This document shows, piece after piece, positions 6,164 through 53,678 of a stretch of DNA of 53,731 nt (the stretch's first letter is position 1; every line of letters begins with the position of its first letter). Source of the DNA: a bacterium. GTDB lineage: Bacteria; Patescibacteriota; Minisyncoccia; Minisyncoccales; JAZDGI01. Under the pieces are notes generated by a model. It was not told the DNA's origin. It searched no databases and worked only from the letters and a program-made list of their open reading frames with translations. The position numbers and the translations under genes were made by a program. The DNA lies in NCBI GenBank assembly GCA_043807085.1, contig JAZDGI010000012.1, positions 1 to 53,731 on the forward strand. The letters are read 5' to 3'.

Positions 6164-9100
6164 ATGTCTAATATCACAAAAAAGATTATCGCTTGTGTTA
6201 CCGCTTTGACAGTTTCAGTTTGGTTAGTAGGTCCTGGCACGGTCCAAGCCCTTACTGCCGATGAATTGCAGGCGCAGATAAGCACCTTATTGGCTCAATT
6301 GACCCAGCTGCAATCGCAATTGTCAACATTGCAAGGCCAGTCAACAACTGGCTCCGGCAGTTCTCTGGCCGCTTGTTCCGGAATCACATTTGACCGGAAT
6401 TTAAGCCAGGGTATGTCTGGAAACGACGCCAAATGCTTGCAAGCCCTGTTAAATCAGAGCAGTGACACGAAAATAGCCTCGTCAGGAGCCGGCTCTCCGG
6501 GAAATGAAACTACCTTCTTTGGCGCTTTGACCAAAGCGGCAGTTGTCAAATTACAGGAGAAATATAAAGCCGAGATTTTAACCCCCGTGGGATTGACTGC
6601 TGGAACCGGATTTTTCGGACCGTCCACAAGGACTAAAGCAAATTCGCTTTTGTCTTCTGGCGTTCCGACCACTCCAACCACTCCAACCACTCCAACCACT
6701 CCGACTACCCCTGTGGGAGGCGAAAACAAAGTTTATTTAGCCGCTGACACTCCGTCTGCCAGATCCGTTGCCAAGGGAGCACAGAATGTTACTTTCGCAA
6801 AAATTAATTTCTGCGCCGCTTCCGAGGCCAATACCGTGTCCAAGCTTACTTTCAGCAGGACAGGTATCGCGGCTGACGCTGATATCAGCAATGTTAAATT
6901 ATGGGAGGGCATAACTCAGGTTGGTTCTACCCAAGCCATTAATTCCACTACTCATAAAGCGGTTTTTTCGTCTTTAAGTTGGACGATTGCCGCTAATTCC
7001 TGCAGAGTCCTAACTCTGACGGCTAGCATTGCCAATGGCGCGACGGCCGGCGATACTCCGAAACTGGAGATTGTTTCAGCTTCAGACATCACCTCAACCG
7101 TTGCCCTGGACGGTGTTTTCCCGATTCAGAGCAATTCCTTCACTATTGCCGGAATCGCAGTGGGAGCCTTAAACGTGGCTACCACTACTCCCTCCGGATC
7201 AGTAGTTGCCGGCGGACAAGAGCAGGGAATAGCTGGATTTATCCTGACCGCTTCTTCGTCTGAAGGAGTGAAAGTCACTTCTATTAAAATTACTGAAGTC
7301 GGTTCTTCTGTTAACGACGACCTTTCCAACGTCAAGCTAATGTATCAGTCAGCCCAGCTTGGCTCAACCGTTGCGGCTTTGGATGCCGCCGGCGCCGCTG
7401 TCTTTGATTTGACGGCAGCTCCATTGGAGCTTTTGGCCGGCACTTCCAAGACACTGACTGTTTATGTTGATGTTGGTTCTGGCACTGGCATTAAAGACAG
7501 AACGATTCAGTTTGAAATTACGGACAAGAACCATATTTCCGCTTTTGGCACCAACTCCGGAGGCAGTATTCTCTCTTGGGGAGCCAGCGGAGTTTGGAGC
7601 ACGACTAACGATGCCTGGCCGCAAAAAGCAGCTTCCATCACGGTTAATCTGGGAAGCTTGACTGTGGCTCAGGATACAGCTTACAGCCCGTCAGCCCAGC
7701 AATACACCAGAGGCACCAGCCAGAACAAGGTTGTCGCCTTTAAGTTTACATCTGGAGCTAACGAAGATGTCAGAATTTCTTCTTTAAAGCTTCGTTCAGC
7801 ATCGGGCGCTGGATTGCCTGACGCCAGCATTGCCAATATTACCCTTTACGACGCCGTAACCGGCGAACAGTTAAAGGATACAGCGGGCAATCTGATACCA
7901 GCAGCTGGAATGAGTTCTGCTTACGTCACTTTTGGTTCTTACACTACCGGGCTTGACACGGTTGGCTTGTTTGATGTTCCCAAGTCCACCTTTAAGAGCA
8001 TTTTGGTTAAGGCCGATATCCCGCAGGGAGCGGCTACAGCCACTGCGATTTTTGGTCTTGAAATCAACAATCCCACCACCCAGATTTGGGCTGACGGAAT
8101 CAATTCCAAGAATGACATTCCCGCAGCTTCAATTAACGCCGGATCTGCCACTAAAGTTCCCAGCACTGCTTTAACGCACGACATTATTGAGAAAGGAACT
8201 TTGACCGTAGCTCCGAGCTCGCAAACGCCTGCTTCGGCAAATTACGGAGTTGGCATAAGCAGCTTTACCATTGCCAAGTTTGATTTGACGGCAACTGGAG
8301 AAGACATTAATGTTACTCAATTTAATGTTCTCTTTGCCACCAACACCGCCGGCAACGCCACCACAACAGTGGCTGACTCCGCCGATGTCAACAATATCAA
8401 GCTTTACGACGGTTCAACTTTGCTAGCTTCCGATTCCCAGGTTTCTACGGGATACGCGGAATTTGCCGTTAATTTTGACGTAGCCAAAGCCACCACTAAA
8501 ACTTTGACAGTGGTTGTTGATATTCCTACAGGATCTGACGCCGGAGGTTTGCAAGCTTGGCTGGAAAAAGCCAGCGATGTTTCAGCAACCGGCCGAAGCT
8601 CCAACGTCACCATTACCGCAACAGCGGCCAGTTGGTCTCTTGTTAAGGGTAATGTGATGACCAAGGGTACGCCTATAGTCACAGTCAGAGCAGCGACCAC
8701 ACCAGCCAGCCAGACTTACATTCAGAATGCCACTCAAGTTTCGGTTTTAAGCCTTTTGCTTACCGCTACTCCGACTGAAGACGTTAAAATTACCAGAATT
8801 CAGATTGCTGTTGACGCCACTTCGTCTGCCACCAGCACAGTCGGAACAGCTTCAACTACTTTCAGCTACGGAGATCCGACTGGAGTAGTTGTCACCGTAG
8901 CTTCTTCCACTACTGGTTTGGGAACTGAATCTGTTAAAGACTACTTTGCCAATATGAAACTGTTTGACGGCTCAACCCAGGTTGGCAATAACGCGCCGAC
9001 AATTACCGATGGCACGGCTTACGACTACGCTGACTTTACCGGTTTGAATTTGGTTATTACAAAAGGAACAACCAAAGTTATTACCGTCAAAGTGGACGTG

Positions 9101-10702
9101 GCTAAAGGCACGACAACAACCGGAAACGTTCCTGCTTTCTTCTTTGGAGTTGCTACCACGACCGGATCGTCAATTGATATTTCCGGCTCTGGCGTCCTAT
9201 CAGGATTAGCAGCCACCTTTGCTATGTCAGCAGGAGGCGTTGGTTCTCAGCCAATGTACTTTGGTTCAGCCGGCAGTTTGGTTGTGGCGCTTGACACCAA
9301 CACTCCGAATTCATCAGTTGTTATGGAAGGAACCACAGCTACTCTTGGCAAGTGGAAGTTCACTGGCGTTAACGAAGGCATTAAAATTTCTAAGTTGAGA
9401 TTTGATGTCCGCCACAGCGATTTGGCTTCAACGACTGTTTATGTCACGGAAGCCAGACTTCTCGCCTTGGCAACCAGCACCAGATTGGCGAAAGATTATG
9501 CCTTTGACTATTCCATTAATAACGCCGCGACCGAGACCTGCTCTTTTGCATGGGATTCGCCGACCACGACTGCTGCTACCGACCGATTCATCGCTTATAT
9601 AAACTCGGCCAGCTCAAGCTGCGCCGCTGATATCGCTGCTGCCGCTGCCACAACGACTGACGCCGCTGTTATTCTTTACGCTTCGCCTTCTGGAAATTCC
9701 TTAATGATTTACGACTATCCCAATCCTTACGGCGGAGGTAATAATGCCAGCAACGTGGCTGACAACCTGCGAATCGGTTTGAAATACGGCCCAGCTGATG
9801 CGACCGGCCGTGAAGTTATTTCCAGATACGAAGGCGCTGATTCCAGCTTGGTTGCCGGAAAAGTTGCCATTTGGGACGGAACCACTAAATTAGCTGAAAC
9901 CAGCTTAAGCGGTTCTGTTAATAGTCAGGCAATCTTTACCTTCACTCCGGAAATTGAAATTCCCAAAGGCAGTAAGGTTCTAACTCTAACAGCCGATCTC
10001 ACAGATTATATGGCCGCGGTTGAAGGAAGTACCATTCTGTTCAGTATCGGCACTTCAACCGTTACCAGCGCTTCAGACACAGACTACATTACTGCTAAAG
10101 GAGCTAGCTCTAACACGCCTCTTACCAGCGCCAGCATTACTATGGACGCTGAAAAAGCCAGCAACGAAATGTGGATTTACGCCACTTATCCGACTGTTTC
10201 GCTGAATGCCTCTTCGCCTTCAGGCGCCCAGACAGCCAACGCTATGGCCGAGGTCTTCAGGTTTGATGTCAAGAATATCAATCCTTCAATTAGCCTGGAC
10301 ATTAATGCCATCAGATTTACTCTGAACACTAATGCTTCTTCGGCTATTTCAGACAAGACCTTCAGGCTCTACAATAAATCCACTGACCCGACTATGAACA
10401 CTATTATCGGGACCACGGTTTCTTGGGGAACTGGCACGAGCACGGCTGTTACTCTGTACGCTACAATCTATCCTTATAGGGACTACACAGTGCCGGAAGG
10501 AACAACGTTCACCTATGTCTTGAAGGCCAATACCTCATCTATGAATGAAGGCACTTCAAAGACTGAAACTCTGACAGTCAGCATTGAAGACGGCGACTTT
10601 TACTGGGATGATTCATCGGGCGTAATGGATGGAGTCAATGCCGCCAATGCCAATCAGAAGGTTCTGAACCTGCCGGTTACCGGAGGCACTCTGCAGTACT
10701 AA
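6164..10702 (+). CDS. 1512-aa secreted S-layer-like surface protein: signal peptide, coiled coil, peptidoglycan-binding-like domain, PT linker, about 7 beta-sandwich repeats
   Basis: Signal peptide (...VGPGTVQA/LTA). LQAQISTLLAQLTQLQSQL coiled coil. LSQGMSGNDAKCLQALLN...FFGALTKAAVVKLQ...FFGPSTR is PG_binding_1-like. Ser/Thr/Ala/Gly-rich. Recurring NxKL(Y/W/F)DG motif. Codons look visibly more C-ending than in neighbours. Confidence 0.8.
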   Translation: MSNITKKIIACVTALTVSVWLVGPGTVQALTADELQAQISTLLAQLTQLQSQLSTLQGQSTTGSGSSLAACSGITFDRNLSQGMSGNDAKCLQALLNQSSDTKIASSGAGSPGNETTFFGALTKAAVVKLQEKYKAEILTPVGLTAGTGFFGPSTRTKANSLLSSGVPTTPTTPTTPTTPTTPVGGENKVYLAADTPSARSVAKGAQNVTFAKINFCAASEANTVSKLTFSRTGIAADADISNVKLWEGITQVGSTQAINSTTHKAVFSSLSWTIAANSCRVLTLTASIANGATAGDTPKLEIVSASDITSTVALDGVFPIQSNSFTIAGIAVGALNVATTTPSGSVVAGGQEQGIAGFILTASSSEGVKVTSIKITEVGSSVNDDLSNVKLMYQSAQLGSTVAALDAAGAAVFDLTAAPLELLAGTSKTLTVYVDVGSGTGIKDRTIQFEITDKNHISAFGTNSGGSILSWGASGVWSTTNDAWPQKAASITVNLGSLTVAQDTAYSPSAQQYTRGTSQNKVVAFKFTSGANEDVRISSLKLRSASGAGLPDASIANITLYDAVTGEQLKDTAGNLIPAAGMSSAYVTFGSYTTGLDTVGLFDVPKSTFKSILVKADIPQGAATATAIFGLEINNPTTQIWADGINSKNDIPAASINAGSATKVPSTALTHDIIEKGTLTVAPSSQTPASANYGVGISSFTIAKFDLTATGEDINVTQFNVLFATNTAGNATTTVADSADVNNIKLYDGSTLLASDSQVSTGYAEFAVNFDVAKATTKTLTVVVDIPTGSDAGGLQAWLEKASDVSATGRSSNVTITATAASWSLVKGNVMTKGTPIVTVRAATTPASQTYIQNATQVSVLSLLLTATPTEDVKITRIQIAVDATSSATSTVGTASTTFSYGDPTGVVVTVASSTTGLGTESVKDYFANMKLFDGSTQVGNNAPTITDGTAYDYADFTGLNLVITKGTTKVITVKVDVAKGTTTTGNVPAFFFGVATTTGSSIDISGSGVLSGLAATFAMSAGGVGSQPMYFGSAGSLVVALDTNTPNSSVVMEGTTATLGKWKFTGVNEGIKISKLRFDVRHSDLASTTVYVTEARLLALATSTRLAKDYAFDYSINNAATETCSFAWDSPTTTAATDRFIAYINSASSSCAADIAAAAATTTDAAVILYASPSGNSLMIYDYPNPYGGGNNASNVADNLRIGLKYGPADATGREVISRYEGADSSLVAGKVAIWDGTTKLAETSLSGSVNSQAIFTFTPEIEIPKGSKVLTLTADLTDYMAAVEGSTILFSIGTSTVTSASDTDYITAKGASSNTPLTSASITMDAEKASNEMWIYATYPTVSLNASSPSGAQTANAMAEVFRFDVKNINPSISLDINAIRFTLNTNASSAISDKTFRLYNKSTDPTMNTIIGTTVSWGTGTSTAVTLYATIYPYRDYTVPEGTTFTYVLKANTSSMNEGTSKTETLTVSIEDGDFYWDDSSGVMDGVNAANANQKVLNLPVTGGTLQY
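6665..6712 (+). repeat. 9-bp tandem repeat (ACTCCAACC x3 plus degenerate units) encoding a PTT linker
   Basis: ccgacc-actccaacc-actccaacc-actccaacc-actccgact-acccct = PTTPTTPTTPTTPTTP. Confidence 0.9.
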
Positions 10703-10737
10703 AGACACGAAGCTCTTTTTACCCTTCCTTGTGGGGT

Positions 10738-10774: not shown

Positions 10775-10821
10775 GGCCGGGTCTTTTATTTTTTATTATT
10801 TTTTTGTATTATTAAAAAAGC

Positions 10822-12507
10822 ATGCGGTTTAAGATATTTTTAATTTTTTTTGCGGTTTTTCTAATTCCTCTTCCTGCTCAAGCGACAGAAGGAGAGTTTA
10901 ATGTTGATCCTTCTTACGATTATTTGGCGCGGAGCAAGGTAAGCGCCTTTTTATACCAGATAGGAGAGAATGCTTATTTTTATGTTGAAGAAGGATACTA
11001 TAATAATTTGGACATAGACAAGAAAAAAGAATTTTCCGAAGCCATCAAAAATTTGTCGCAGGAGTTTGATAATAAAATTTATCCGAAATTAAAAGAAGTT
11101 TTCGGTTCGGAGCCTAATCCGGGGATTGACAAAGACCCAAGACTGATAGTCTTAATAACTCAAATAAAAGGGGAGGCGGGCGGTTATTTTAATTCCGGAG
11201 ACGAATATCCCAAAGCCCAATCGCCTGATTCCAACGAGCGCGAAATGCTTTATCTTAACGCGACCTATATTGCCAGTCCTTTGGTCAAAAGCTATTTGGC
11301 GCATGAGTTCACTCATTTAATAATTTTTAACCAGAAAAACAATCTTCATAATGTTGAGGAAGAAGTTTGGCTGAACGAAGCCAGGGCTGAAGCCGCTGTA
11401 TCTCTGCTTGGCTATGATTTGAATTATCAGGGATCCAATCTTCAAAAAAGAGTCAGGACTTTTTCCCAGAATCCGACCGATCCTTTGACCGAGTGGAAAA
11501 ACCTGGCACCGGATTACGGCGTGGCGAATATTTTCGTTCAGTATCTGCTTGACCATTATGACGTGAAAATACTTTCTGATTCTTTGCATTCGGATAAAAT
11601 CGGCATTGCCTCTCTGGACGAGGTTTTGCAAAGAAGCGGGTCGGTTAAAAATTTTGCCCAGATTTTTACCGATTGGTCAATTGCCGTTTTGGTCAACGAC
11701 TGCAGTTTGGGCAGAGAATACTGCTATTTAAATCCAAATTTGCAAAACCTAAGGATTCTGCCCAAGTTAAACTATCTGCCCCTGTCGGACGAAAGCGTTT
11801 TAACGGTAATAGATTATACAAAAAACTGGGCTGGCAATTGGATTAAGTTTATCGGCGGCCGCGGCACGTTAAAGCTTGAATTTGTCGGGGAAACCGGCGA
11901 AAAATTTAACGTTCCGTATCTGACAAAAAATTTTTACGGAAATTATTCTATTAGTTTTTTCAATCTGGACAACAATCAGCGGGGGATAGTCTACCTTCCG
12001 GGGTTCGGCAGGGATTATGAGTCTTTGGTCATTGTTCCCTCTTTGCAAAAGAAAACAGCTGGTTTTGACGGGCTGGAATCTTTTCATAAATTTATCTGGT
12101 CAACCTCTTTGACAAACGAAGAGACTCCTCAAAAAGAGCAGGAAGCTAAATTGATTCAGCAGCTTTTGTCCCAGATTGAGTCTTTGAAAAAAGAGATTGC
12201 GATTGCGCAGGCAAAAATAAGCGCGATTTTGCTAGCTCGCCAAAAGCCGGTTTCTCCGAATAGCGGGCTGGCTTGCCCCGCCTTTAGCCAAGATCTTTAT
12301 TTCGGCCTGGCGGATAACAGCGAAGTCAGATGCTTGCAAAAGTTTTTGTTAAACCAGGGTCCGGAGATTTATCCCGAAGGTTTGATTACCGGCAACTTCG
12401 GAGCTTTAACTAAAGCCGCTTTAATCCGTTTTCAGAAAAAAAACTCAATCCCGGGCACAGGCTATTTTGGGCCTTTAACCCGTCAGTTGCTTAATTCGTC
12501 TGATTAG
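10822..12507 (+). CDS. Secreted zinc metallopeptidase (HExxH, gluzincin-type) with C-terminal coiled coil and peptidoglycan-binding-like domain
   Basis: Signal peptide; LAHEFTHLI...WLNEARAE. C-terminus VRCLQKFL...ITGNFGALTKAALIRFQ...GYFGPLTR. Confidence 0.78.
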   Translation: MRFKIFLIFFAVFLIPLPAQATEGEFNVDPSYDYLARSKVSAFLYQIGENAYFYVEEGYYNNLDIDKKKEFSEAIKNLSQEFDNKIYPKLKEVFGSEPNPGIDKDPRLIVLITQIKGEAGGYFNSGDEYPKAQSPDSNEREMLYLNATYIASPLVKSYLAHEFTHLIIFNQKNNLHNVEEEVWLNEARAEAAVSLLGYDLNYQGSNLQKRVRTFSQNPTDPLTEWKNLAPDYGVANIFVQYLLDHYDVKILSDSLHSDKIGIASLDEVLQRSGSVKNFAQIFTDWSIAVLVNDCSLGREYCYLNPNLQNLRILPKLNYLPLSDESVLTVIDYTKNWAGNWIKFIGGRGTLKLEFVGETGEKFNVPYLTKNFYGNYSISFFNLDNNQRGIVYLPGFGRDYESLVIVPSLQKKTAGFDGLESFHKFIWSTSLTNEETPQKEQEAKLIQQLLSQIESLKKEIAIAQAKISAILLARQKPVSPNSGLACPAFSQDLYFGLADNSEVRCLQKFLLNQGPEIYPEGLITGNFGALTKAALIRFQKKNSIPGTGYFGPLTRQLLNSSD

Positions 12508-12533
12508 TGTTGTGTGAGCCTTGTTGACCCCTC

Positions 12534-12562
12534 TTGACACCTCCTCTTGAGTGCTCTATTAT
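12534..12562 (+). promoter_or_regulatory. Near-consensus sigma70 promoter heading the glycan locus
   Basis: TTGACA (12534-12539), 17 nt, TATTAT (12557-12562). Confidence 0.75.
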
Positions 12563-12590
12563 AGGGGTAGATAATCTTTTTGTGATATTA

Positions 12591-12621
12591 GACATTTCCC
12601 GCTAGAGGCGGGTGTCTTTTT
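12591..12621 (+). promoter_or_regulatory. Leader hairpin followed by a T-tract (attenuator/terminator-like)
   Basis: GACA-ttt-CCCGC-tagag-GCGGG-TGTC-TTTTT, located between the promoter and the first ATG (12629). Confidence 0.5.
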
Positions 12622-12628: not shown

Positions 12629-12874
12629 ATGCCAGAGATTAAGCCAAACGAAATCTATACGACCCAAGAGGCCCAAACCTTTCTAAAAGTAAGCAAAAGC
12701 ACAATTAAAAGATTTCTGAAGGGAGGAATTATCAGGGCTTACAAGGTTGGCGGAAGCTACCGGATCTGGGGCAGCGAAATTTTGCGTTTGGTTTCGCCGG
12801 AAGTGGAATCCAAAGTTTACCGGGTTTACAAAAAGGTCAAAGATAAAACAAGAGAAACTCTGGAAAAATGGTAA
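12629..12874 (+). CDS. Small helix-turn-helix DNA-binding protein (excisionase/MerR-like HTH_17)
   Basis: YTTQEAQTFLKVSKSTIKRFLKGGIIRAYKVGGSYRI; 81 aa. Confidence 0.85.
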   Translation: MPEIKPNEIYTTQEAQTFLKVSKSTIKRFLKGGIIRAYKVGGSYRIWGSEILRLVSPEVESKVYRVYKKVKDKTRETLEKW

Positions 12875-13326
12875 ATAGAAACAAAAAAATCATTGTGGCG
12901 GTCAGCGGCGGATTTGACCCACTGCACGTTGGCCATGTCAGACTATTCAGAAAGGCTAAGAGCTTGGGCGATAAATTAGTGGTTATTTTAAATAACGATA
13001 ATTGGCTGAAGCAGAAAAAAGGATTTTCTTTCATTCCCGAAGAAGAGCGCAAAGAAATAATTGAATCTTTAAAATGGGTGGACAAGGTTATATTGACAAA
13101 ACACCGCTCGGGAACGAAAGATAAAACCGTTTGCCGAGAGCTGGAAGAGCTAAGTCCGAATATTTTTGCCAACGGCGGAGACAGGACGGACAAAAACGTT
13201 CCGGAAGTCGCGATTTGCCAAAAAATAAATTGCCAAATGGTTTTTAATGTCGGCGAAGGCGGAAAGGTCCAATCGAGTTCTTGGTTATTGAAAAAATTTC
13301 TCAAAGATGCCAGAAAACAAAATTAA
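12868..13326 (+). CDS. Cytidylyl/adenylyltransferase (HIGH-motif, TagD-like family)
   Basis: VSGGFDPLHVGH, VVILNND, ANGGD, KVQSSS. Confidence 0.85.
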   Translation: MVNRNKKIIVAVSGGFDPLHVGHVRLFRKAKSLGDKLVVILNNDNWLKQKKGFSFIPEEERKEIIESLKWVDKVILTKHRSGTKDKTVCRELEELSPNIFANGGDRTDKNVPEVAICQKINCQMVFNVGEGGKVQSSSWLLKKFLKDARKQN

Positions 13327-15168: not shown

Positions 15169-15197
15169 TTAATAATTAACTAATAATTATTTACGAT

Positions 15198-15959: not shown

Positions 15960-15978
15960 AAATCGCTATCGGCAATTT

Positions 15979-16368: not shown

Positions 16369-16369
16369 T

Positions 16370-21657: not shown

Positions 21658-21658
21658 A

Positions 21659-23667: not shown

Positions 23668-23672
23668 AAATT

Positions 23673-24695: not shown

Positions 24696-24696
24696 A

Positions 24697-25656: not shown

Positions 25657-25661
25657 GTCTT

Positions 25662-29714: not shown

Positions 29715-29728
29715 AAAAAATAAAATAT

Positions 29729-32360: not shown

Positions 32361-32366
32361 TTTATT

Positions 32367-39136: not shown

Positions 39137-39156
39137 GTATGTATTATTAAACGAGT

Positions 39157-39729: not shown

Positions 39730-39733
39730 TTAT

Positions 39734-45251: not shown

Positions 45252-45255
45252 TTTT

Positions 45256-46005: not shown

Positions 46006-46579
46006 TGTTATTTTTTCGTTTTTGGGGCTGGCTGTTGTCTGGCCGGTTTTGATTTTGCTGGCGGTTTTAATTAAAAAAGAATCCACGGGGTCGGTTTTTT
46101 ATTGCGGCCAGAGAGCGGGCAAAGGAGGCAGGCCGTTTAAAATGCTTAAGTTTCGGAGCATGGTTGTAGACGCTGATAAAATCGGCGGACCTTCAACGTC
46201 TGGCGACGATCCTCGGCTGACTAAAACCGGCAAATTTTTAAGGAGACACAATCTGGATGAGCTTCCTCAACTGATTAATATATTGAAGGGAGAAATGAGT
46301 TTTGTCGGGCCAAGACCCGAGGTGCTTTCAGAAGTGGAAACTTACGACGAAGAAACTAAAAGGATTATTTTGTCCGTAAGGCCCGGGCTGACCGATTTGG
46401 CTACGTTGGAAGATGTTCATGAAGAAGAAATTTTAAAAGGAAGCCCGGATCCTCACGAAGCTTATTGCCGGTTAATCAGGCCTAAAAAACTGGCTTTAGC
46501 CAAAGAGTACGTCCAGAAGAGATCCTTCTGGCTGGATATCAAAATAATTCTCAAAACTCTTCGCGCCGCCATTTTTTAA
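45986..46579 (+). CDS. Initiating phosphoglycosyltransferase (Bac_transf; PglC/WcaJ C-terminal type)
   Basis: KRLFD, FKMLKFRSM, DPRLT..G.FLR...LDELPQL.N...GEMSFVGPRP. Confidence 0.93.
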   Translation: MAKRLFDVIFSFLGLAVVWPVLILLAVLIKKESTGSVFYCGQRAGKGGRPFKMLKFRSMVVDADKIGGPSTSGDDPRLTKTGKFLRRHNLDELPQLINILKGEMSFVGPRPEVLSEVETYDEETKRIILSVRPGLTDLATLEDVHEEEILKGSPDPHEAYCRLIRPKKLALAKEYVQKRSFWLDIKIILKTLRAAIF

Positions 46580-46592
46580 AAGGTTTCGGTAA

Positions 46593-46620
46593 TTGATTTT
46601 TAGGGAAATTCAGTTATAAT
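46593..46620 (+). promoter_or_regulatory. Internal sigma70-type promoter before the transketolase genes (possibly leaderless)
   Basis: TTGATT (46593-46598), 16 nt, TATAAT (46615-46620); ATG at 46628. Confidence 0.5.
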
Positions 46621-46627
46621 GGCGAAT

Positions 46628-47434
46628 ATGGCGCATTATCTGGCGGATGAAATCAAGGGAATAAGGCGAGATATTTTGGAAATACTTTACAGGACAAAAA
46701 GCCCTCATATCGGCTCTTGTTTTTCAATGGTTGAATTATTGACGGCTTTGTATTTTAAGATATTGAAGATTGATCCCAAAAACCCGGCCGACCCAAATCG
46801 GGACAGGTTTGTTTTGAGCAAGGGGCATGGCGCGCCGGCTCTTTACGCGGTTCTGGCAAAAAGAGGGTTTATCGGCAAAGAAGCTTTGGCTGGTTTTGCC
46901 AAAGACGGCGGAACATTGGAGCAGCATCCGAACAGAAATGTTTCTCAAGGAATTGAAATTACTTCCGGCTCTTTAGGCCATGGATTGTCAATTGCCGCGG
47001 GCATGGCTCTGGCCGGAAAGTACGACAAAGCTAATTGGCGGGTTTTTGCTTTTTCCAGCGACGGCGACCTGGAAGAAGGTTCTTCTTGGGAAGCGATAAT
47101 GTTCGCCGGTCATCATAAATTGGATAATTTAATAGCTATTGTTGATTATAACAAGCTTACGGCCATGGGCAGGATTAAAGAAATTTTAGACTTAGATCCT
47201 TTGGCGGAAAAGTGGCGGGCTTTTGACTGGGAAGTCAAGGAAGTTGATGGCCACAATATGGAAGAAATCATCAATGCTTTGGAAAATATTCCTTTCAAGA
47301 ATGGGAAGCCGAGCTGTTTGATCTCTCATACTATAAAGGGCAAGGGTGTTTCTTTTATGGAAAACGACCCGAAGTGGCATGACAAATGCCCTGACGAGCA
47401 GGAATATGAAAAAGCCGCAGAAGAATTAAAATGA
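46628..47434 (+). CDS. Transketolase, N-terminal (ThDP-binding) subunit
   Basis: PHIG, DRFVLSKGH, GSLGHG, SDGDLEEG...N, HTIKGKG. ATG 46628 preferred over 46619. Confidence 0.92.
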   Translation: MAHYLADEIKGIRRDILEILYRTKSPHIGSCFSMVELLTALYFKILKIDPKNPADPNRDRFVLSKGHGAPALYAVLAKRGFIGKEALAGFAKDGGTLEQHPNRNVSQGIEITSGSLGHGLSIAAGMALAGKYDKANWRVFAFSSDGDLEEGSSWEAIMFAGHHKLDNLIAIVDYNKLTAMGRIKEILDLDPLAEKWRAFDWEVKEVDGHNMEEIINALENIPFKNGKPSCLISHTIKGKGVSFMENDPKWHDKCPDEQEYEKAAEELK

Positions 47435-47439
47435 TAGGC

Positions 47440-47490
47440 GATGAGGGATAAACCCTCATCTAAGATATTTCGTTTTCGCAAAGCGAAAAC
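47440..47490. repeat. Two adjacent perfect 8-bp inverted repeats between the transketolase halves
   Basis: GATGAGGG-ataaa-CCCTCATC (47440-47460) and GTTTTCGC-aaa-GCGAAAAC (47472-47490). Confidence 0.75.
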
Positions 47491-47494
47491 TCAT

Positions 47495-48421
47495 ATGAGA
47501 AAGGTTTTTTTTAAGACATTAGAAGATATCGCTAAAGAAGACAAAAGCATTTTTTTGCTGGCCGCTGACTTGGGCGTGAAGTTTTTCCAGAATTTTAAGG
47601 ATATTGATCCCAAGAGAGCGATTAACGTCGGCGTGGCCGAGCAAAATATGATTGGCGTTGCCGCGGGATTGGCAATGTCAGGCAAGAATGTTTACTGCTA
47701 TTCCATAATTCCTTTTTTGACAATGCGGGCTTTTGAGCAGGTTCGGGTTGATCTTTGCGGCCATAATTTAAACGTAAAATTGCTGGGAGCTGGCGGGGGA
47801 TTGGTTTACGGCCTGGAAGGAATGACTCATCATGCTCTTGAAGACATTGCCATAATGAGGTCTTTGCCCAATATGACTGTGACAGCTCCGGGCGATGCCA
47901 AAGAAGCTGAAGCTTTGGCCATAGCTTCAGTAAATTTTTCCGGGCCTCTTTACGTTCGTTTTGGCCGCGATATAGATCCAGTTGTTCATAAGAATAATCC
48001 GGAGTTTAAAATCGGCAAGGGAATTGTTATAAATGAAGGAAAGGACATCTGTCTGATTGCAACCGGCAGTATGCTGTACCCGGCTGCAACTGTTCAGGAA
48101 ATTTTAAAGGAAAAGGGATTTGCTCCCGGCCTTGTCAGCATGCACACTATTAAGCCGATTGACGAGGAACTGACAAAAGACTGCGCTAAAAAATATCAAG
48201 CCATTTTTACCCTTGAAGAACACAGCGTGATTGGCGGCTTGGGTTCGGCGGTAGCTGAAGTTCTGGCGGAATCTAATTATGGAAAAACCTTCAAAAGAAT
48301 CGGTATTGCCGATCGTTATACTTTTCCTATTATCGGATCGCCTGACTATTTAAAGGAAAGGGCTGGGCTGTCGCCGGGAAAAATAGTCGAAACTATATTA
48401 AAAGATTTAAATAGGCGATGA
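47495..48421 (+). CDS. Transketolase, C-terminal subunit
   Basis: ADLG, NVGVAEQNM, RAFEQ, THHALED, GPLYVRFG, EEHSVIGGLG. ATG at 47495. Confidence 0.92.
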   Translation: MRKVFFKTLEDIAKEDKSIFLLAADLGVKFFQNFKDIDPKRAINVGVAEQNMIGVAAGLAMSGKNVYCYSIIPFLTMRAFEQVRVDLCGHNLNVKLLGAGGGLVYGLEGMTHHALEDIAIMRSLPNMTVTAPGDAKEAEALAIASVNFSGPLYVRFGRDIDPVVHKNNPEFKIGKGIVINEGKDICLIATGSMLYPAATVQEILKEKGFAPGLVSMHTIKPIDEELTKDCAKKYQAIFTLEEHSVIGGLGSAVAEVLAESNYGKTFKRIGIADRYTFPIIGSPDYLKERAGLSPGKIVETILKDLNRR

Positions 48422-48429
48422 TTCGTTAT

Positions 48430-49569
48430 ATGAAGTACAAAGTAGATTTTATTAATTCAAGTTATCGTCGATATTATAAGGCTCACAGGAGAGAGATATT
48501 AAGGGCAATTGATAAATGTTTTTCTTTGGGCAATTTTGTTTTAAGGAAAGACGTTTTGGAGTTTGAAGGGAAACTGGCAAAATTTGTGGGGGTAAAGTAC
48601 GCTGTTGGAGTTAATTCCGGGACAGACGCCTTGAAGCTTTCGTATAAAGTTTTAGGGTGCGGTCCGGGAGACGAGGTTGTTACTGTGGGACATACTTTTA
48701 TCGCTTCTATTGAGGAAATTGTCCATTTGGGCGCAAAACCCATTTTGGTTGACGTCAAAGAAGACGGACTAATGGATGTTTCTAAAATTGAGAAAGCGAT
48801 TACTAAAAAAACAGTAGGAATAGTTCCGGTTCATTTGTCTGGGAAAGTATGCGATATGGATGAAATTATGAGAATAGCTAAGAAATACAAGCTATGGGTT
48901 GTGGAGGATGCTTGCCAGGCCTTGGGAGCGTATTGGGGCACAAGACCAGCTGGGAGCATAGGAAACACAGGCTGCTTCAGTTTTATATCTCCAAAGACTC
49001 TGGGCGGCGCCGGAGATGCCGGCGGAATAGTTACTAACGATAGAAAATTATACGAAAAGCTGTTGTTGATGAGAAATCATTGGAATATCACTCAAGGGGC
49101 GCTGCATGGCGTTCAGCCCAAAGCGCCAAAAATTATGGATTGGGGATATAATACCAGGCTTGATAATATCCAGGCGGCAATTTTAAACGTAAAATTTAAA
49201 TATTATCCGGCTATGCTGAAAAGAAGAAGGGCTATAGGCATGATGTACAATAAGGCGCTGAAAAATTTGCCCTGCGTCCTGCCGATTCAACAGCCAAAGC
49301 AGATTTACCAGGAATATATTGTCAAGATAAAAGAAATGTGGAAATTCAAAAAGTATATTAATGAGAAAGGGGTGGAGCTTTTAATCAGAGATACGGTTCC
49401 GAACCATAAGCTAAGGGGATTGGGAATGGAACATTTCAATCTGCCGATTACCGAAAGAATAGCTAAGGAGTCCGTGCGGCTGCCGATTTACCCCGAATTG
49501 ACGAATAAAGAGGTGGAGTACGTCATTGCTTGCGTAAGAAACTTTTATTTGAAGCAAAATGCCGGTTAA
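48430..49569 (+). CDS. DegT/DnrJ/EryC1/StrS PLP sugar aminotransferase 2
   Basis: VNSGTDAL, PVHLSG, EDACQALG, FSFISPKTLG, YNTRLDNIQAA. ATG at 48430. Confidence 0.92.
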   Translation: MKYKVDFINSSYRRYYKAHRREILRAIDKCFSLGNFVLRKDVLEFEGKLAKFVGVKYAVGVNSGTDALKLSYKVLGCGPGDEVVTVGHTFIASIEEIVHLGAKPILVDVKEDGLMDVSKIEKAITKKTVGIVPVHLSGKVCDMDEIMRIAKKYKLWVVEDACQALGAYWGTRPAGSIGNTGCFSFISPKTLGGAGDAGGIVTNDRKLYEKLLLMRNHWNITQGALHGVQPKAPKIMDWGYNTRLDNIQAAILNVKFKYYPAMLKRRRAIGMMYNKALKNLPCVLPIQQPKQIYQEYIVKIKEMWKFKKYINEKGVELLIRDTVPNHKLRGLGMEHFNLPITERIAKESVRLPIYPELTNKEVEYVIACVRNFYLKQNAG

Positions 49570-51427
49570 TTTTCAAAAGATTTTAATTAAAAATCGGAAA
49601 ATAATCCGAAAGGTATTTTTTTTGGCAGCCGACGCTGTCTCAATTTGCTTTGCCGTTTTTTTGGCTTTTTTGGTAAGGTTTGAAGGTCAAATCCCGGAGC
49701 GGTATTTCTTTAATATCTACGGGATAATCGTTTTGTTTCTAATTTTTTTCCTGCCAGCCTTCTTTCTCTTCCGCCTATATTCTTTTTCTTGGGCGTATGT
49801 TTCGGCCCAAGAGCTGGTTTCGCTGACTAAAGCGGTCTTTCTGGCCTTCCCCCTGCTGCTTTTTTTCTTTTTTGTTTTGAGGAGCCAAGAGCTGTTTTCC
49901 GGCTTTCCCCGCTCCACTCTTTTAATGAGTTTTATTTTTATTTTTATTTTTTCGGGGGCGATCCGTTTTGCCAAAAGAATTTATTTCCAGATTTTCAAGG
50001 GCGAAAGCGGCCAGAAAGAAAGAATTTTGATAGTGGGGGCAGGCGCAGCCGGCGAACAGATTTTGAGAAGCATTTTAAATTCCAGAGAAAGCAATTATCT
50101 GCCCGTTGGGTTTTTAGACGATAATCCGTCAAAGCAGGAAATTTTAATCCACGGGATAAAGGTTCTTGGAAAGATCAAGGATATTCCGATGATTGTTGAG
50201 AAAAAAGAGATCGAGGGAATTATTATCGCTCTTCCTTCCGCCGGCTCAAAAACAATAAAGCAGGCGATAGAGCTGGCCAGGCAGGCAAAGCTGAAAAAAA
50301 TAAGGATTGTGCCCTCTTTGGGTGAAATTATCAGCGGCCAAGTTTCTTTAGCTAACGTCAGGGGAGTGGAAATGGAGGATCTGCTGGGGCGGGAGCCGGT
50401 TTCTCTGGATAAAAACGAGATTTCTGGATTTCTGGACCAAAAAAAAGTTTTGGTTACGGGAGCCGCCGGTTCTATTGGTTCTGAGCTTTGCCGGCAGATT
50501 TCTAAGTTTAATCCGGCTCGGCTTTTGATTCTTGACCAGGACGAAACAGGCATTTTTAACATTGACGAAGAATTAAAAGATAAGTTTCCCAATCTTGAAA
50601 TTACAGCCTTCGTCGCCGACATATACGATGATAAAAAAATTTCTAAAATTTTTCGAGAATTCAGGCCGGAGATTGTTTTTCACGCAGCCGCTTACAAACA
50701 CGTGCCTTTAATGGAGGCTAATATTGACGAGGCGGTGAAAAACAATGTCTTCGGAACAAAAAATATCGCCAGAGCGGCTTTAGAAAACAAAGCGGAAAAA
50801 TTTGTTTTTATTTCCACTGACAAAGCGGTCAAACCCATATCGGTTATGGGAGCTACCAAGAGAATCGGAGAAATGATCTGCCAGTCCTTGAACCAAAAAG
50901 GAGAAACAAGATTTATTTCCGTACGTTTCGGAAATGTTTTAGACAGTCGCGGAAGCGTTATACCGATTTTCCGGGAGCAGATCAGAAAAGGGGGTCCGGT
51001 GGAAATTACGGACCCCGGAATGAAAAGATATTTTATGCTTACATCGGAAGCCTGTCTTTTGGTGCTTCAGTCGGGCGCCATGGGCCAGGGCGGGGAAGTT
51101 TTTATTCTGGATATGGGAAAACCAGTTGAGATTTTGAGTTTGGCTAAAGAAATGATCCGTCTTTCAGGCTTTGAATCGGACAAAGATATCCCGATTGTCT
51201 TTACCGGAATCAGACCCGGAGAAAAATTAGTGGAAAAAATACTTACAGCTAAAGAAAACACTTTAGCCACTAAAAATCAAAAGATTTTTGTTTCTAGACT
51301 TTCTCCGTTAAACGAGGCAGTATTAAACGAAGGATTAAAAAAGCTGTCTGACGGCATTGAGGATCAGGACGTAGAGAAGATCGCCGCCGTCTTGAGCAGT
51401 TTTATTTCAACCTATCATCATGGGTAA
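49559..51427 (+). CDS. Membrane-bound UDP-GlcNAc 4,6-dehydratase (PglF/CapD/WbpM family)
   Basis: Four N-terminal TMs; IVGAGAAG; EDLLGRE; VTGAAGSIGSE; FHAAAYKHVP; STDKAV; VRFGNVL; GIRPGEKL. Confidence 0.92.
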   Translation: MPVNFQKILIKNRKIIRKVFFLAADAVSICFAVFLAFLVRFEGQIPERYFFNIYGIIVLFLIFFLPAFFLFRLYSFSWAYVSAQELVSLTKAVFLAFPLLLFFFFVLRSQELFSGFPRSTLLMSFIFIFIFSGAIRFAKRIYFQIFKGESGQKERILIVGAGAAGEQILRSILNSRESNYLPVGFLDDNPSKQEILIHGIKVLGKIKDIPMIVEKKEIEGIIIALPSAGSKTIKQAIELARQAKLKKIRIVPSLGEIISGQVSLANVRGVEMEDLLGREPVSLDKNEISGFLDQKKVLVTGAAGSIGSELCRQISKFNPARLLILDQDETGIFNIDEELKDKFPNLEITAFVADIYDDKKISKIFREFRPEIVFHAAAYKHVPLMEANIDEAVKNNVFGTKNIARAALENKAEKFVFISTDKAVKPISVMGATKRIGEMICQSLNQKGETRFISVRFGNVLDSRGSVIPIFREQIRKGGPVEITDPGMKRYFMLTSEACLLVLQSGAMGQGGEVFILDMGKPVEILSLAKEMIRLSGFESDKDIPIVFTGIRPGEKLVEKILTAKENTLATKNQKIFVSRLSPLNEAVLNEGLKKLSDGIEDQDVEKIAAVLSSFISTYHHG

Positions 51428-53678
51428 AATGTCTCGTGAAAAAAAAGAAAGAAGACTGCAGACTGGTGTTAATTCGGCAGCCGCCCAGATTCGCAAAAGC
51501 CCCTTGGAGAATATTTCTCTCTGGGCTTTGCAGATCTTAGTTTACGCTAGCCTATTTACGCCTTTGATCATTGACAGCAGTTTTTTCTTCCCTTATGTTT
51601 CTCCCAAAACCATTTTTTTTCGGGTTATCGTTGATATCATTTTAATATTCTATATTATATTGATTGTGGCTAACCGCCGCTACTTGCCCAAATTTAATTT
51701 TTTTACTATCTCCCTAGCTTCTTTCATCGCGGTCGCTTTCGTAACTTCCCTGACTGGAATAAATTTTTCAAAAAGCTTTTGGAGCGTTTTTGAAAGAATG
51801 GGCGGCCTTTTAACTTTTTGCCATCTTTTTGTCTTTTTCCTCGTTTTGACCAGCGTTTTCCGCGAAAGGAAATACTGGGAAAGGTTTTTTACCGCTTCTA
51901 TTTTTGTGGGCATTATTCTTACCTTTTATGTTTTTAATTCAGAAGAAGGCACGGCCCGCGGCGGGGGCACTATTGGCAATACCTCCTTTCTTTCAGCTTA
52001 CCTGATTTTTGATATATTTTTTGCGATTATATTGTTTTTCAGCAAGTCGGGCTTTTGGCGAGTTTTTTACGGCTTGGCTTTGGTACCTTTGATATGGCTC
52101 TTGCTTTTTCCGCCAAAAGAGCCGACCCAAGGCGCTATCGGCGCTTTTTACGGAGGACTAGCCTTGTTAGCTTTCGGTTTTGGCTTGTATTATGTTTATT
52201 CTTCAGGCCGCCGGCTGCTTAAAAAAATAACGCCGATTCTTTTGGCTATTTTGGTTTTAGCTGTAGTCGGAATTTCCCAGACAAGCTTTGTCAAAAACAA
52301 AATTAACGGCATCGCGCAATCCAGCAGCTGGCAGTCCCGGGCGGTTGTCTGGAAAATGGGATACCTTGCCTGGCAGGATAGGCCTTGGCTTGGCTGGGGC
52401 CAGGAAAATTTTAACGTTCCTTTTACCAGGCATTTTAATCCCTCTCTGCCCTTGACAGTTGATATTTGGTATGACCGCGTGCACAATATTGTTTTTGATA
52501 ATTTAGTGACGTCCGGCGTTATCGGACTTTTAAGCTATTTAACGATTTTTGGCGCGGCGATTTTCGGGCTGATAAAAACCTTGCCCAAAATTACCGATAA
52601 AAAAAATGTTTTTTTGCCCTTGGGAATGATTTCTCTTTTGGCTGTATACTTTGTTCAGGACCTATGGGTTTTTGATATGATCTCAAGCTATATGATGTTT
52701 TTTCTTTCTATGGCTTTTATTAATTTTTTACTCTCTGGCCGTCAGCCGGAGCCGGTTTTAGATTCCGCGGAAAAACCGAGGGGGATTAGCCCGCTCTTGG
52801 CTGGATTTTTGATCATTGGCAGTCTTTTTGCTCTTTATTTCGGCAATATCCAGCCGGCCCGCGCTTCCAAATACATTATTGAAGGCGTTTCGCAGAAGCT
52901 GGAAACGGGTATGGCGTTTTTCCAAAAAGCGCTTGACGCCTCGCCTATGGCCATTATTGAAGCTCCCGAGCAGTTCTCCCGAGTACTCGGCAATCTGGTT
53001 TTTAACGAGAAAGTTGACAGGGTTGTTTTGGGTCAGGGATTTGAACTGGCGATCGGAGACCTTAAAAAAGCCATCGTTAAAAATCCGGAAGACTTCCGTT
53101 TTTATCTGCTCTTAGGAAAGCTTTACAGCGATTTTTATTTCGTTGATAAAGATCCCAAGCATCTTGAAGATTCAGAGAGCGTTTTAACGAAAGCCATTGA
53201 GCTGTCGCCTAAAAATCAGCAGGGGTATTGGAGCTTGTCGCAAACCAGAATTTCCCAGGGCAGAGAGCAAGACGCCATTGATTTGATGCAAAAAGCCGTA
53301 GACTTGGAGCCGAGATTCGGCCTGTCCCATTGGTATTTGGCAATGACTTACAAGATTGTCGGCGGCGGTCGGGAAATGGCGCTGGAAGAAGTGGCAAAAG
53401 CCGAAGCGAACGGATACGATTGGCGAGCGAATGTAGATAATATTAAAAAAGTAATTGAGTTGTACCAGGACTCAGACGACGATCAAAAATTAGCCGAACT
53501 TTACTCTTTGGCAGTTGAAAAATCTCCGGAAAACGCCCAATTCTGGATGGGTCTGTCTGTTTCCCAGGCTAATCTCGGAAAATTTGATCAGGCGAGAGCG
53601 TCGGCCCAAAAAGCCCTTTCCCTCAAGCCTGATTTTGCGGCCCAGATAGAGGAATTTTTAGACAGCCTGCCGAAATAA
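51420..53678 (+). CDS. O-antigen ligase / O-oligosaccharyltransferase-like membrane protein (Wzy_C) with C-terminal TPR repeats
   Basis: About 12 TMs; GTIGNTSFLSAYL; SR..VW....W.DRPWLGWG; DRVHN; TPR-like C-terminus (KAIELSPKNQ, KAVDLEP, KSPENA). Confidence 0.85.
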   Translation: MGKMSREKKERRLQTGVNSAAAQIRKSPLENISLWALQILVYASLFTPLIIDSSFFFPYVSPKTIFFRVIVDIILIFYIILIVANRRYLPKFNFFTISLASFIAVAFVTSLTGINFSKSFWSVFERMGGLLTFCHLFVFFLVLTSVFRERKYWERFFTASIFVGIILTFYVFNSEEGTARGGGTIGNTSFLSAYLIFDIFFAIILFFSKSGFWRVFYGLALVPLIWLLLFPPKEPTQGAIGAFYGGLALLAFGFGLYYVYSSGRRLLKKITPILLAILVLAVVGISQTSFVKNKINGIAQSSSWQSRAVVWKMGYLAWQDRPWLGWGQENFNVPFTRHFNPSLPLTVDIWYDRVHNIVFDNLVTSGVIGLLSYLTIFGAAIFGLIKTLPKITDKKNVFLPLGMISLLAVYFVQDLWVFDMISSYMMFFLSMAFINFLLSGRQPEPVLDSAEKPRGISPLLAGFLIIGSLFALYFGNIQPARASKYIIEGVSQKLETGMAFFQKALDASPMAIIEAPEQFSRVLGNLVFNEKVDRVVLGQGFELAIGDLKKAIVKNPEDFRFYLLLGKLYSDFYFVDKDPKHLEDSESVLTKAIELSPKNQQGYWSLSQTRISQGREQDAIDLMQKAVDLEPRFGLSHWYLAMTYKIVGGGREMALEEVAKAEANGYDWRANVDNIKKVIELYQDSDDDQKLAELYSLAVEKSPENAQFWMGLSVSQANLGKFDQARASAQKALSLKPDFAAQIEEFLDSLPK

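Follow-up and report, generated by a model that had tools for sequence, protein, structure and literature searches.

Which acceptor receives the glycan that a 41-kb biosynthetic island appears to build in a bacterium of about half a megabase, and which enzyme attaches it there? The island lies on a 53,731-bp contig (JAZDGI010000012.1, the whole of which is called the window below) of a 529-kb, 20-contig assembly from a member of the Patescibacteria (GCA_043807085.1; completeness 94%, contamination 2.3%), whose nearest database relatives carry the labels Patescibacteria, Paceibacteria or Nealsonbacteria. Ahead of the island is the gene of a 1512-aa candidate surface protein, and its last gene encodes a membrane protein that joins a Wzy_C domain to a TPR domain (Wzy_C-TPR). 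Our answer, which we prefer but hold only tentatively, is that the locus would make a single-unit glycan, flipped by Wzx and transferred by Wzy_C-TPR to the 1512-aa protein and possibly to pilins. The ligase nature of the enzyme, the single unit and the protein acceptor are each deduced from the lines of evidence given below.

Genes were annotated by Pfam and NCBIfam scans, and transmembrane (TM) segments were counted by hydropathy. Genome composition and codon statistics cover 414 open reading frames (ORFs) of at least 150 aa. The order was sampled by 41 genomes, each of a different family and 34 of high quality. Sampled genomes are denoted by G-numbers (G000 is this genome), compared loci by L-numbers, and contigs of this assembly by C-numbers, the window being C12. 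The features that carry the argument are as follows.

6164-10702, + strand: 1512-aa candidate major surface (S-layer-like) protein (translation, Pfam, composition)
19160-20626, + strand: Wzx-type (MOP/Polysacc_synt) flippase, about 12 TM segments (Pfam, hydropathy, weak NCBIfam)
44223-51427, + strand: core reducing-end cassette, with a membrane-associated GT2 glycosyltransferase at 44223 and a SAM methyltransferase at 45214, followed by the next four entries (Pfam, NCBIfam)
45986-46579, + strand: small PglC-type phosphoglycosyl transferase (PGT), 197 aa (Bac_transf, 201 bits)
46619 and 47441, + strand: split transketolase
48418-49569, + strand: DegT aminotransferase
49559-51427, + strand: membrane PglF-like UDP-N-acetylhexosamine (UDP-HexNAc) 4,6-dehydratase
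51420-53678, + strand: Wzy_C-TM13-TPR protein, 752 aa, predicted terminal glycan transferase (Pfam, AlphaFold2, Foldseek, profile)

We consider it likely that Wzy_C-TPR, whose gene stops 53 nt short of the contig end, is a ligase rather than a polymerase. Pfam PF04932 (Wzy_C) matches residues 245-374 with 57.9 bits (cut-off 31.7; 62.4 bits in the genome scan), and it alone matches the TM domain, the O-antigen-polymerase and EpsG models giving no match at E 10. The full-length, alignment-based AlphaFold2 model (pLDDT 86.7, pTM 0.82) retrieves only TPR proteins with Foldseek, e.g., OGT (residues ~540-750). When residues 1-500 were folded separately (pLDDT 74.2), the best Foldseek match was 7tpg_B, a WaaL structure (E 1.4e-5, TM-scores 0.53/0.63); it was also the sole significant one, the next match being FtsW at E 1.7e-2. 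A profile of the TM domain searched against 177,635 PDB sequences found 7TPG/7TPJ alone, at E 3e-4. Sequence identity to WaaL is ~14%, and R307 and H355 align with R265 and H313 of the Cupriavidus metallidurans enzyme (CmWaaL) and are invariant in 30 homologues. These two positions correspond to an essential Arg/His pair common to EcWaaL (R288, H338) and NmPglL (R298, H349) (PMC3643930).

The model helices, taken together with the positive-inside rule, predict 13 TM segments, starting from an N-terminus on the cytoplasmic side. The catalytic loop of 70 aa that joins TM9 to TM10 (residues 287-356) is predicted to be extracytoplasmic, and TM13 is predicted to set the 261-aa TPR domain outside; this arm is invariant in the family. 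Two hhalign comparisons were too weak to serve as tests: that with a single E. coli WaaL reached a probability of 0.65% over 226 columns, with Arg and His aligned, and that with E. coli O16 Wzy (WbbH) covered 14 columns only. Homologues of the protein number 387 at E <=1e-10 in the protein collection. A locus search of the contig collection with it gave no confirmed relative.

The distribution of the gene points in the same direction. Orthologues with 35-59% identity were found in 27 of the 41 order genomes, and at eight loci (G006, G009, G018, G032, G034, G036, L039, and L040) the gene stands directly after PglF, preceded in most of them by the cassette of GT2, methyltransferase, PGT, split transketolase, DegT, and PglF. 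Genes farther upstream of the cassette vary from genome to genome. WaaL and PglL recognize the sugar proximal to the lipid pyrophosphate, whereas Wzy co-varies with the repeat unit. Hence, an enzyme that remains constant along with the reducing-end genes while the rest of the glycan varies is ligase-like, as are WaaL and PglL.

By hydropathy, Wzx, the PglF-like dehydratase and Wzy_C-TPR are the only polytopic membrane proteins of the locus, and thus it contains no separate Wzy; the Wzx protein at 19160 is its only flippase. We also considered the 497-aa protein at 28221, which has no Pfam match, as a hidden Wzy, and rejected it, as it has zero TM segments. With neither a separate Wzy nor a Wzz, the glycan is expected to be a single, unpolymerized unit. 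An earlier note on this DNA had proposed a Wzx-dependent pathway served by a Wzy_C/TPR enzyme of the ligase type, and this proposal is supported: Wzy_C-TPR is the sole terminal enzyme, with a WaaL fold and a TPR domain predicted to lie outside.

The enzyme might instead polymerize the units into a capsule or a secondary cell-wall polysaccharide, with the TPR domain as a scaffold for export, as with PelB, BcsC, and PgaA, and with release or attachment of the polymer left to another enzyme, perhaps a paralogue on contig C8. Some members of Pfam Wzy_C are polymerases, weak NCBIfam matches of the TPR part to PgaA and PrsT were obtained, and the C8 protein could be the ligase; in B. anthracis, the Wzy_C-like proteins WpaA and WpaB are reportedly implicated in the assembly of the secondary cell-wall polysaccharide. 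TPR domains typify polysaccharide export scaffolds (reference list of PMC2943079). Such a role nevertheless seems very unlikely. Conservation at the above level in 27 families beside hypervariable islands is unlike Wzy, the catalytic Arg and His of WaaL/PglL are invariant, the alignment with E. coli Wzy over its 14 columns is not meaningful, the genome has no Wzz/Wzc chain-length regulator, and no LytR-CpsA-Psr (LCP) enzyme is found either in the genome or in the order sample. The C8 protein, moreover, has Lys at the position of the catalytic Arg and a displaced His in the profile alignment.

This paralogue is a divergent Wzy_C-like-TPR protein of 750 aa (C8:22359-24611), encoded directly upstream of rpoB/rpoC; upstream of it, an 887-aa ORF continues to the end of the contig (region C8:22359-27420, L002). 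It scores 23.9 bits with Wzy_C in the genome scan, against the cut-off of 31.7, and its TM part has no Pfam match at E 10. Many relatives have at least two such paralogues (matches at 25-30% identity).

The envelope in which Wzy_C-TPR would act can be judged from what the 94%-complete genome lacks. LpxC, the sole lipid A marker searched for (kds and waaA were not), is absent, with positive controls in diderms; Wzz, Poly_export (Wza), and LCP (LytR_cpsA_psr) are absent as well, the control genomes being positive. The lack of Wzz/Wza export and lipid A genes, originally remarked for the window, therefore extends to the whole genome as far as these four markers go. By these markers, the organism is without lipopolysaccharide (LPS) and without capsule export machinery. 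LCP is further absent in 41/41 sampled genomes of the order, and so the usual monoderm route by which polymers linked to undecaprenyl pyrophosphate (Und-PP) are fixed to peptidoglycan is unavailable.

The acceptor could also be a lipid. Wzy_C-TPR would then put the flipped glycan on a membrane glycolipid, giving a lipoteichoic-acid-like or lipoglycan coat, and the surface protein would be linked to the island only through a shared envelope-biogenesis neighbourhood. The precedent is Streptococcus pneumoniae TacL, a monoderm Wzy_C protein that ligates an Und-PP-linked chain beginning with 2-acetamido-4-amino-2,4,6-trideoxygalactose to glucosyl-diacylglycerol (PMC5727136). The core of PglF-like dehydratase, DegT, and small PGT would yield a first sugar of this class, a 4-amino-2,4,6-trideoxy-HexNAc at the reducing end of the Und-PP donor; the fold and residues of Wzy_C-TPR are those of WaaL, a ligase with a lipid acceptor; and the gene is kept beside murB and secA, not beside a protein substrate. 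On the other hand, TacL is a protein of ~400 aa (397 aa) without a TPR domain, compared with 752 aa including TM13 and TPR here, and an invariant outward TPR arm suits a protein or other macromolecular partner better. Pneumococcal TacL transfers a polymerized chain and works in a cell that also has a Wzy-type polymerase and LCP enzymes, neither of which is present here. No glycolipid-anchor synthase turned up, although a systematic search was not made, and a lipid acceptor leaves unexplained why a glycan island accompanies five of six surface-protein homologues. We consider a lipid acceptor fairly unlikely, although it is the main and a serious competitor of transfer to protein.

Transfer to protein, the reading we prefer, gives the central place to the 1512-aa protein. 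Behind its signal peptide come a Gln/Leu coiled coil, a weak PG_binding_1 segment, a (PTT)5 linker, and a remainder of ~1300 aa that is Ser/Thr/Ala/Gly-rich, acidic, and Cys-poor and has no Pfam match; PG_binding_1, itself marginal, is the only Pfam match of the protein at E 1. The protein is encoded by the genome's largest ORF, and its Ser+Thr content of 25.2% is the highest among the 414 ORFs (mean 10.2 +/- 2.8%, SD), i.e., ~5 standard deviations above the mean. Ser and Thr are spread evenly (22-34% per 100 aa), Asp and Glu number 117 vs 89 Lys and Arg, there are 7 Cys and 4 His, and self-BLAST finds no internal repeats. The codon adaptation index (CAI) of its gene, calculated against ribosomal-protein genes, is moderately high (rank 47/414). 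From this composition and the anchoring segment, we infer an S-layer-type protein; large size and a Ser/Thr-rich, acidic, Cys-poor composition are customary for such proteins, which is not proof. Homologues form 92 clusters in the protein collection, and those with annotation derive from metagenome-assembled genomes of the Patescibacteria/Paceibacteria type, apart from one partial sequence labelled Aminicenantales. In their sources they are named "hypothetical" or "peptidoglycan-binding domain-containing protein".

The surroundings of this gene, including the entry to the glycan island, contain the following features.

4084-4635, 4688-5194 and 5246-6001, + strand: regulatory triad of a winged helix-turn-helix (wHTH) protein, an extracytoplasmic function (ECF) sigma factor and a DUF5667 anti-sigma-like membrane protein, respectively (Pfam)
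10822-12507, + strand: secreted 561-aa protein with signal peptide, HEFTH (HExxH) motif, coiled coil and C-terminal PG_binding_1 (Pfam, NCBIfam, sequence)
12534-12562, + strand: sigma-70-like promoter TTGACA-17-TATTAT (promoter scan, 11/12 matches)
12629-12874, + strand: 81-aa HTH_17 (excisionase/MerR-like) ORF (ORF; orthologues annotated PF12728)
12868-13326, + strand: cytidylyl/adenylyltransferase-like protein (Pfam, NCBIfam)
13307-14032, + strand: 241-aa nucleotide-sugar-dehydrogenase-like protein (Pfam, NCBIfam)

Full-length homologues of the 1512-aa protein on long contigs are 48-61% identical to it, and the triad precedes every one of them that was examined. The order wHTH, ECF sigma factor, DUF5667, surface protein, 561-aa protein, HTH_17, and glycan island is found at L041, L043, L044, and L045. 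At L046, where the homologue is 39% identical, the island lacks the 561-aa gene, and genes for GT4, a dehydrogenase, DegT, and AsnB follow directly. In total, a glycan island follows the surface-protein homologue in five of six informative relatives. The adjacency of surface protein and island is therefore more than chance, as it recurs in relatives. Both ends of the arrangement can be seen on a single 190-kb contig of GCA_043814215.1, with the surface protein at ~61-66 kb, the genes for PGT, transketolase, DegT, PglF, Wzy_C-TPR, MurB, and SecA at ~1-13 kb, and an island of ~43 kb filling the interval; this architecture is that of the window. Three landmark genes (those of the surface-protein homologue, the 561-aa protein, and Wzy_C-TPR) share a strand in G013 and G025, at distances of 56 and 29 kb, respectively. 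The synteny comparison suggested in the earlier note is thus largely favourable, the arrangement recurring at L041, L043-L046, G013, and G025; L003 is the exception.

In the window itself, all parts of the complete lipid-carrier assembly line are where they had been placed, but the line does not directly follow the 1512-aa gene, as had been claimed: the genes of the 561-aa and HTH_17 proteins intervene. A gap of 360 nt separates the 561-aa gene from the gene at 12868, from which 38 biosynthetic genes run through the Wzy_C-TPR gene.

The 561-aa protein is a syntenic bridge between the surface-protein and Wzy_C-TPR genes. It is near-universal and single-copy (34/41 order genomes, 36-52% identity), and its gene stands directly after the surface-protein homologue in G013, G025, G032, G034, L003, L041, and L043-L045 and adjoins the Wzy_C-TPR gene in G004, G006, G019, G030, G036, and G039. 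In G004 and G019, the 561-aa gene follows Wzy_C-TPR without an intervening island, and MurB comes next in G004. With 11% Ser/Thr, the protein is not Ser/Thr-rich. Its N-terminal part of ~450 aa has no Pfam model, and a PDB sequence search with it was uninformative; the protein may be a wall-bound metalloprotease.

The HTH_17 gene is the other conserved border gene of the island. Orthologues at the same position in four relatives are 69-80% identical, making it the best-conserved gene of the neighbourhood (50-59% for the surface protein at those loci). It always stands at the entry of the glycan island, and in the window it is preceded by the near-consensus promoter and, at 12598-12612, by a short GC hairpin with a T-run. 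The two entry genes that follow, at 12868 and 13307, have orthologues 61-75% identical at L030, L041, L043, and L045.

Several observations weigh against transfer to the 1512-aa protein. The ligase lies 41 kb from the surface-protein gene, and between the surface-protein operon and the island there are a strong promoter-like site and a regulator gene. Downstream of Wzy_C-TPR, relatives have MurB, SecA or the 561-aa gene, so that the tightest conserved neighbours of the ligase are the housekeeping genes murB and secA and the 561-aa gene. Wzy_C-TPR is undetected in 14 of the 41 genomes, three of which have a surface-protein homologue. At L003, the closest homologue in the contig collection, the module of sigma factor, surface protein, and 561-aa protein is followed by more giant Ser/Thr-rich proteins, and no glycan genes occur in the next 8 kb. 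As an expression proxy, the CAI rank of the 1512-aa gene gives just a moderate signal. Within the enzyme, the third Arg shared by EcWaaL (R215) and CmWaaL (R191) is Gln237 here, being Arg in most relatives, and PglL_A (PF15864), the motif that tells PglL from WaaL, is undetected at E <=0.001 and, on the TM domain, at E 10. The existence of the C8 paralogue points the same way. The link between the glycan and the 1512-aa protein is drawn from synteny and composition, and it is on those grounds that we regard this acceptor as the most likely one.

A protein acceptor need not be this protein in particular. The main substrates could be type IV pilins and/or many secreted proteins with stretches of low-complexity Ser/Thr/Pro sequence, with the 1512-aa protein one of many at most. 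The genome has at least four pilin-like ORFs (C3:15588-16145, C3:16189-16671, C9:6628-7143, and C18:32565-33464), two of them with CAI values at the top of the genome; at L045, pilus genes occur 8 kb upstream of the surface-protein gene, namely T2SSE, T2SSF, and two N_methyl pilins; and the ligase adjoins no single substrate gene. PglL-type enzymes of Neisseria are likewise general and not adjacent to pilE, yet 21/31 PglL homologues are pilin-adjacent (PMC3643930), a pattern not seen here: there is no pilin gene in the window or beside the ~14 Wzy_C-TPR orthologues examined. The PglL_A motif is absent too, and we rate pilins or general secreted proteins as main substrates quite unlikely. The two tandem pilin-like ORFs on C3 (15588-16671; N-terminal ...AFTLIELLVV) hold CAI ranks 1 and 3 of 414.

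With the 1512-aa protein as the preferred acceptor, the locus looks like a counterpart in the Candidate Phyla Radiation (CPR) of the S-layer glycosylation (slg) clusters of Gram-positive bacteria. These are known from Geobacillus stearothermophilus NRS 2004/3a (sgsE, wsaA-wsaP) and Paenibacillus alvei CCM 2051T (spaA, wsfA-wsfP); WsaB and WsfB are their predicted O-oligosaccharyltransferases, both with a Wzy_C domain (PMC2943079); the same source describes a C-terminal TPR in WsfB, a candidate for the S-layer O-oligosaccharyltransferase, and in PglL, and a separate WsaA in Geobacillus. In both cases the envelope is of a monoderm type without LPS, a surface-protein gene stands beside the glycan cluster (here, the gene stops at 10702 and the island begins at 12629), a polyprenyl-phosphate sugar-1-phosphate transferase starts the glycan, a protein with Wzy_C and TPR is the terminal enzyme, and a tagD-like cytidylyltransferase gene is present. 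The likeness to WsaB and WsfB is drawn from their published descriptions (PMC2943079). The present locus differs in having a Wzx flippase and no polymerization, in starting with a small PglC-type PGT and a PglF/DegT amino sugar vs a Gal-1-P transferase, and in a PG_binding_1 anchor, not SLH, on the candidate surface protein. Its island is also 3-4 times larger and more tailored, with five radical-SAM enzymes, a C-methyltransferase, and sulfatase-fold enzymes.

Three other systems share parts of this design. WaaL of C. metallidurans (7TPG/7TPJ) and E. coli has the same 12-TM core, large outside loop, Arg/His pair, and Wzx-delivered Und-PP donor; unlike WaaL, Wzy_C-TPR has no lipid A-core acceptor in this organism (as judged by LpxC only), has an extra TM13 and a TPR domain, and has Gln for the third Arg. 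The PglL/TfpO(PilO)/PglS enzymes have Wzy_C and the catalytic Arg/His (PMC3643930), and they share with this locus the proposed en bloc transfer of a single unit and a gene outside an LPS locus; the differences here are the missing PglL_A, the lack of a pilin neighbour and of an outer membrane, and the long TPR fused after an extra TM segment. Finally, a TPR superhelix, which binds protein substrates, is likewise combined with a glycosyltransferase in eukaryotic OGT and TMTC1-4, which is analogy only, as catalytic fold, donor, and compartment differ.

The sugars and decorations can be considered from the remaining features of the island.

14035, 16370 and 17763 (block 14035-19157), + strand: decoration module, three cytoplasmic sulfatase-fold proteins (Pfam, NCBIfam)
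15198 and 15979, + strand: CysD/PAPS-reductase-like protein and 129-aa CysD-like fragment (Pfam, NCBIfam)
20602-34900, + strand: variable sugar-synthesis/tailoring block (Pfam, NCBIfam)
27128-28240, + strand: DegT aminotransferase
34783-44226, + strand: GT4, GT2 and GT9 heptosyltransferase, then heptose module (Pfam, NCBIfam)

According to this gene content, the small PGT at 45986 would load a sugar of the 4-amino-2,4,6-trideoxy-HexNAc type onto the polyprenyl-phosphate carrier. This reducing-end sugar would come from the PglF-like protein at 49559 and the DegT protein at 48418, with the split transketolase and the methyltransferase possibly introducing modifications. Pathways of the Neisseria/Campylobacter type likewise make a reducing sugar of the N,N'-diacetylbacillosamine type through PglF/PglE/PglC homologues. 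Five recognizable glycosyltransferases (GT1-like 22573, GT4 34783, GT2 35969, GT9 36855, and membrane GT2 44223) would extend it with products of at least three further nucleotide-sugar pathways; besides the PGT, there are thus five and not about six, as suggested earlier. The GT2 at 44223 has two C-terminal TM helices and might on that account be a polyprenyl-phosphate sugar synthase of the GtrB/ArnC type; its NCBIfam matches are generic only (EpsD/PgaC-like). With decoration by the radical-SAM, methyl-, acyl-, and sulfatase-fold enzymes, a hexa- to heptasaccharide would result. Wzx would flip the single unpolymerized unit, and Wzy_C-TPR would move it en bloc from the pyrophosphate carrier to the acceptor outside, by means of the loop with Arg307 and His355, while the outward TPR arm would hold the acceptor partner. 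This acceptor would most likely be Ser/Thr of the neighbouring 1512-aa protein, with pilins as possible additional ones.

Three activated-sugar routes are predicted from the annotations. The variable block encodes GDP-mannose 4,6-dehydratase and an epimerase/reductase, which constitute a putative GDP-6-deoxyhexose route, followed by the glycosyltransferase 22573, a GFO oxidoreductase, a FemAB/GNAT-like protein, a B12-radical SAM enzyme, and DegT, and then the 497-aa soluble protein, an NDP-sugar dehydratase, an FdtA-like cupin, a sugar C-methyltransferase, a further B12-radical SAM enzyme, and a radical SAM-SPASM enzyme. The dehydratase, cupin, C-methyltransferase, DegT, GFO oxidoreductase, and FemAB-like protein form the predicted route to a C-methyl/amino-deoxyhexose. 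The heptose module contains a B12-radical SAM enzyme, GmhA (SIS), a PfkB heptose kinase, an adenylyltransferase-GmhB fusion, a class III aminotransferase, and a radical SAM enzyme, of which GmhA, the kinase, and the fusion make up a predicted complete ADP-heptose route. Heptose and 6-deoxyhexose are also found in the S-layer glycans of Aneurinibacillus.

The block from GT9 to the radical SAM enzyme recurs in G032, and the content of the 20602-34900 block differs among relatives. Two PAPS_reduct genes, a CysN-like GTPase (GTP_EFTU), and two sulfatase-fold genes belong to the island at L043; a GHMP kinase and a B12-radical SAM enzyme are encoded in those at L044 and L045, and phosphonate-type ABC proteins and a CDP-alcohol transferase in that at L041. 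The island consists of conserved entry genes and a conserved exit cassette with a variable centre; conserved flanks around a variable centre are the pattern of O-antigen and capsule loci.

The proteins of the decoration module have no TM segments by hydropathy. The label "sulfatase" of three of them is not to be taken literally: the formylglycine motif C/S-x-P-x-R occurs in 0/3, and at the nucleophile they have Thr, Thr, and Ser (T-A-P-S-L, T-P-C-S-F, and S-P-H-S-F). We likewise rejected the interpretation as true sulfatases with the radical SAM-SPASM protein at 33827 as their anSME maturase. Together with the CysD-like genes, these proteins hint at an uncommon cytoplasmic chemistry of sulfo- or phospho-decoration.

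Much of bacterial diversity belongs to the Patescibacteria (CPR), which live attached to host cells and whose surface molecules are, to our knowledge, essentially unknown. A literature search found neither protein glycosylation nor S-layer glycoproteins nor Wzy_C-TPR enzymes described for Patescibacteria. The locus supplies a candidate major surface protein, a candidate terminal transferase with a relative of solved structure, and an architecture of conserved flanks and variable centre that predicts strain-specific surface glycans in organisms with genomes of ~0.5 Mb. If the acceptor is a protein, O-oligosaccharyltransferases of the WaaL fold reach into a lineage without LPS and LCP; if it is a lipid, CPR would own a TacL-like lipoglycan, and either would be new for the phylum. 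The window adds that the ligase of the PglF-adjacent, MurB-flanked clade is at the far end of the island and not beside the surface protein, and it brings the 561-aa and HTH_17 genes as conserved borders of the island, the order-wide absence of LCP, and TacL as a rival model. A wider proposal, possible though rather doubtful, is that Wzy_C-TM13-TPR proteins form a new, Patescibacteria-wide class of O-oligosaccharyltransferases in which the outward TPR domain docks the wall-anchored Ser/Thr-rich protein, itself the S-layer subunit of these very small bacteria, and that the 30-55-kb island between the surface-protein operon and the cassette of PGT, PglF, and ligase is a hypervariable "serotype" locus. 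Phages and recognition by the host would then drive the diversification of the glycans that form the outermost coat of the cell.

Some features of the island and the genome stand apart from these questions. Five radical-SAM enzymes, three of them B12-binding, are encoded within 25662-44226 of a 0.53-Mb genome; at L044, cobalamin lower-ligand/salvage genes (CobU, CobT-like, CobS) and a FecCD/ABC importer lie just upstream of the surface-protein module. The split transketolase stands between the PGT and DegT/PglF in almost every orthologous cassette (46619-48421 in the window; 5700-7020 at L039/L040), and in many relatives its second half is a 168-aa pyrimidine-binding domain alone. A thiamine-dependent C2 transfer onto a 4-keto or 4-amino reducing-end sugar is conceivable, and we know of no characterized precedent for a transketolase pair in such a position.

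The 46 genes of the window are all on the + strand and densely packed, the composition of the contig is uniform along its length, an Rfam scan of the window gave zero matches, and the island makes up ~8% of the genome. Upstream of the regulatory triad are a 5'-open gene for an LTD/beta-helix surface protein and an endonuclease/phosphatase gene (Pfam/NCBIfam). Genes for the ribosomal proteins S5/L18/L6/S8 occur a second time on the 2.1-kb contig C2 (526-2112), in a form unlike that on C13; the bin thus includes a small amount of foreign DNA, and C2 probably originates from another organism or strain within it. Contig C14 encodes a PMT_2 (GT-C) glycosyltransferase, together with DegT-like and cytidylyltransferase/HAD-like matches (1383-1781, 5548-10307), and looks like a second small glycan locus, possibly serving another route of protein or lipid glycosylation.

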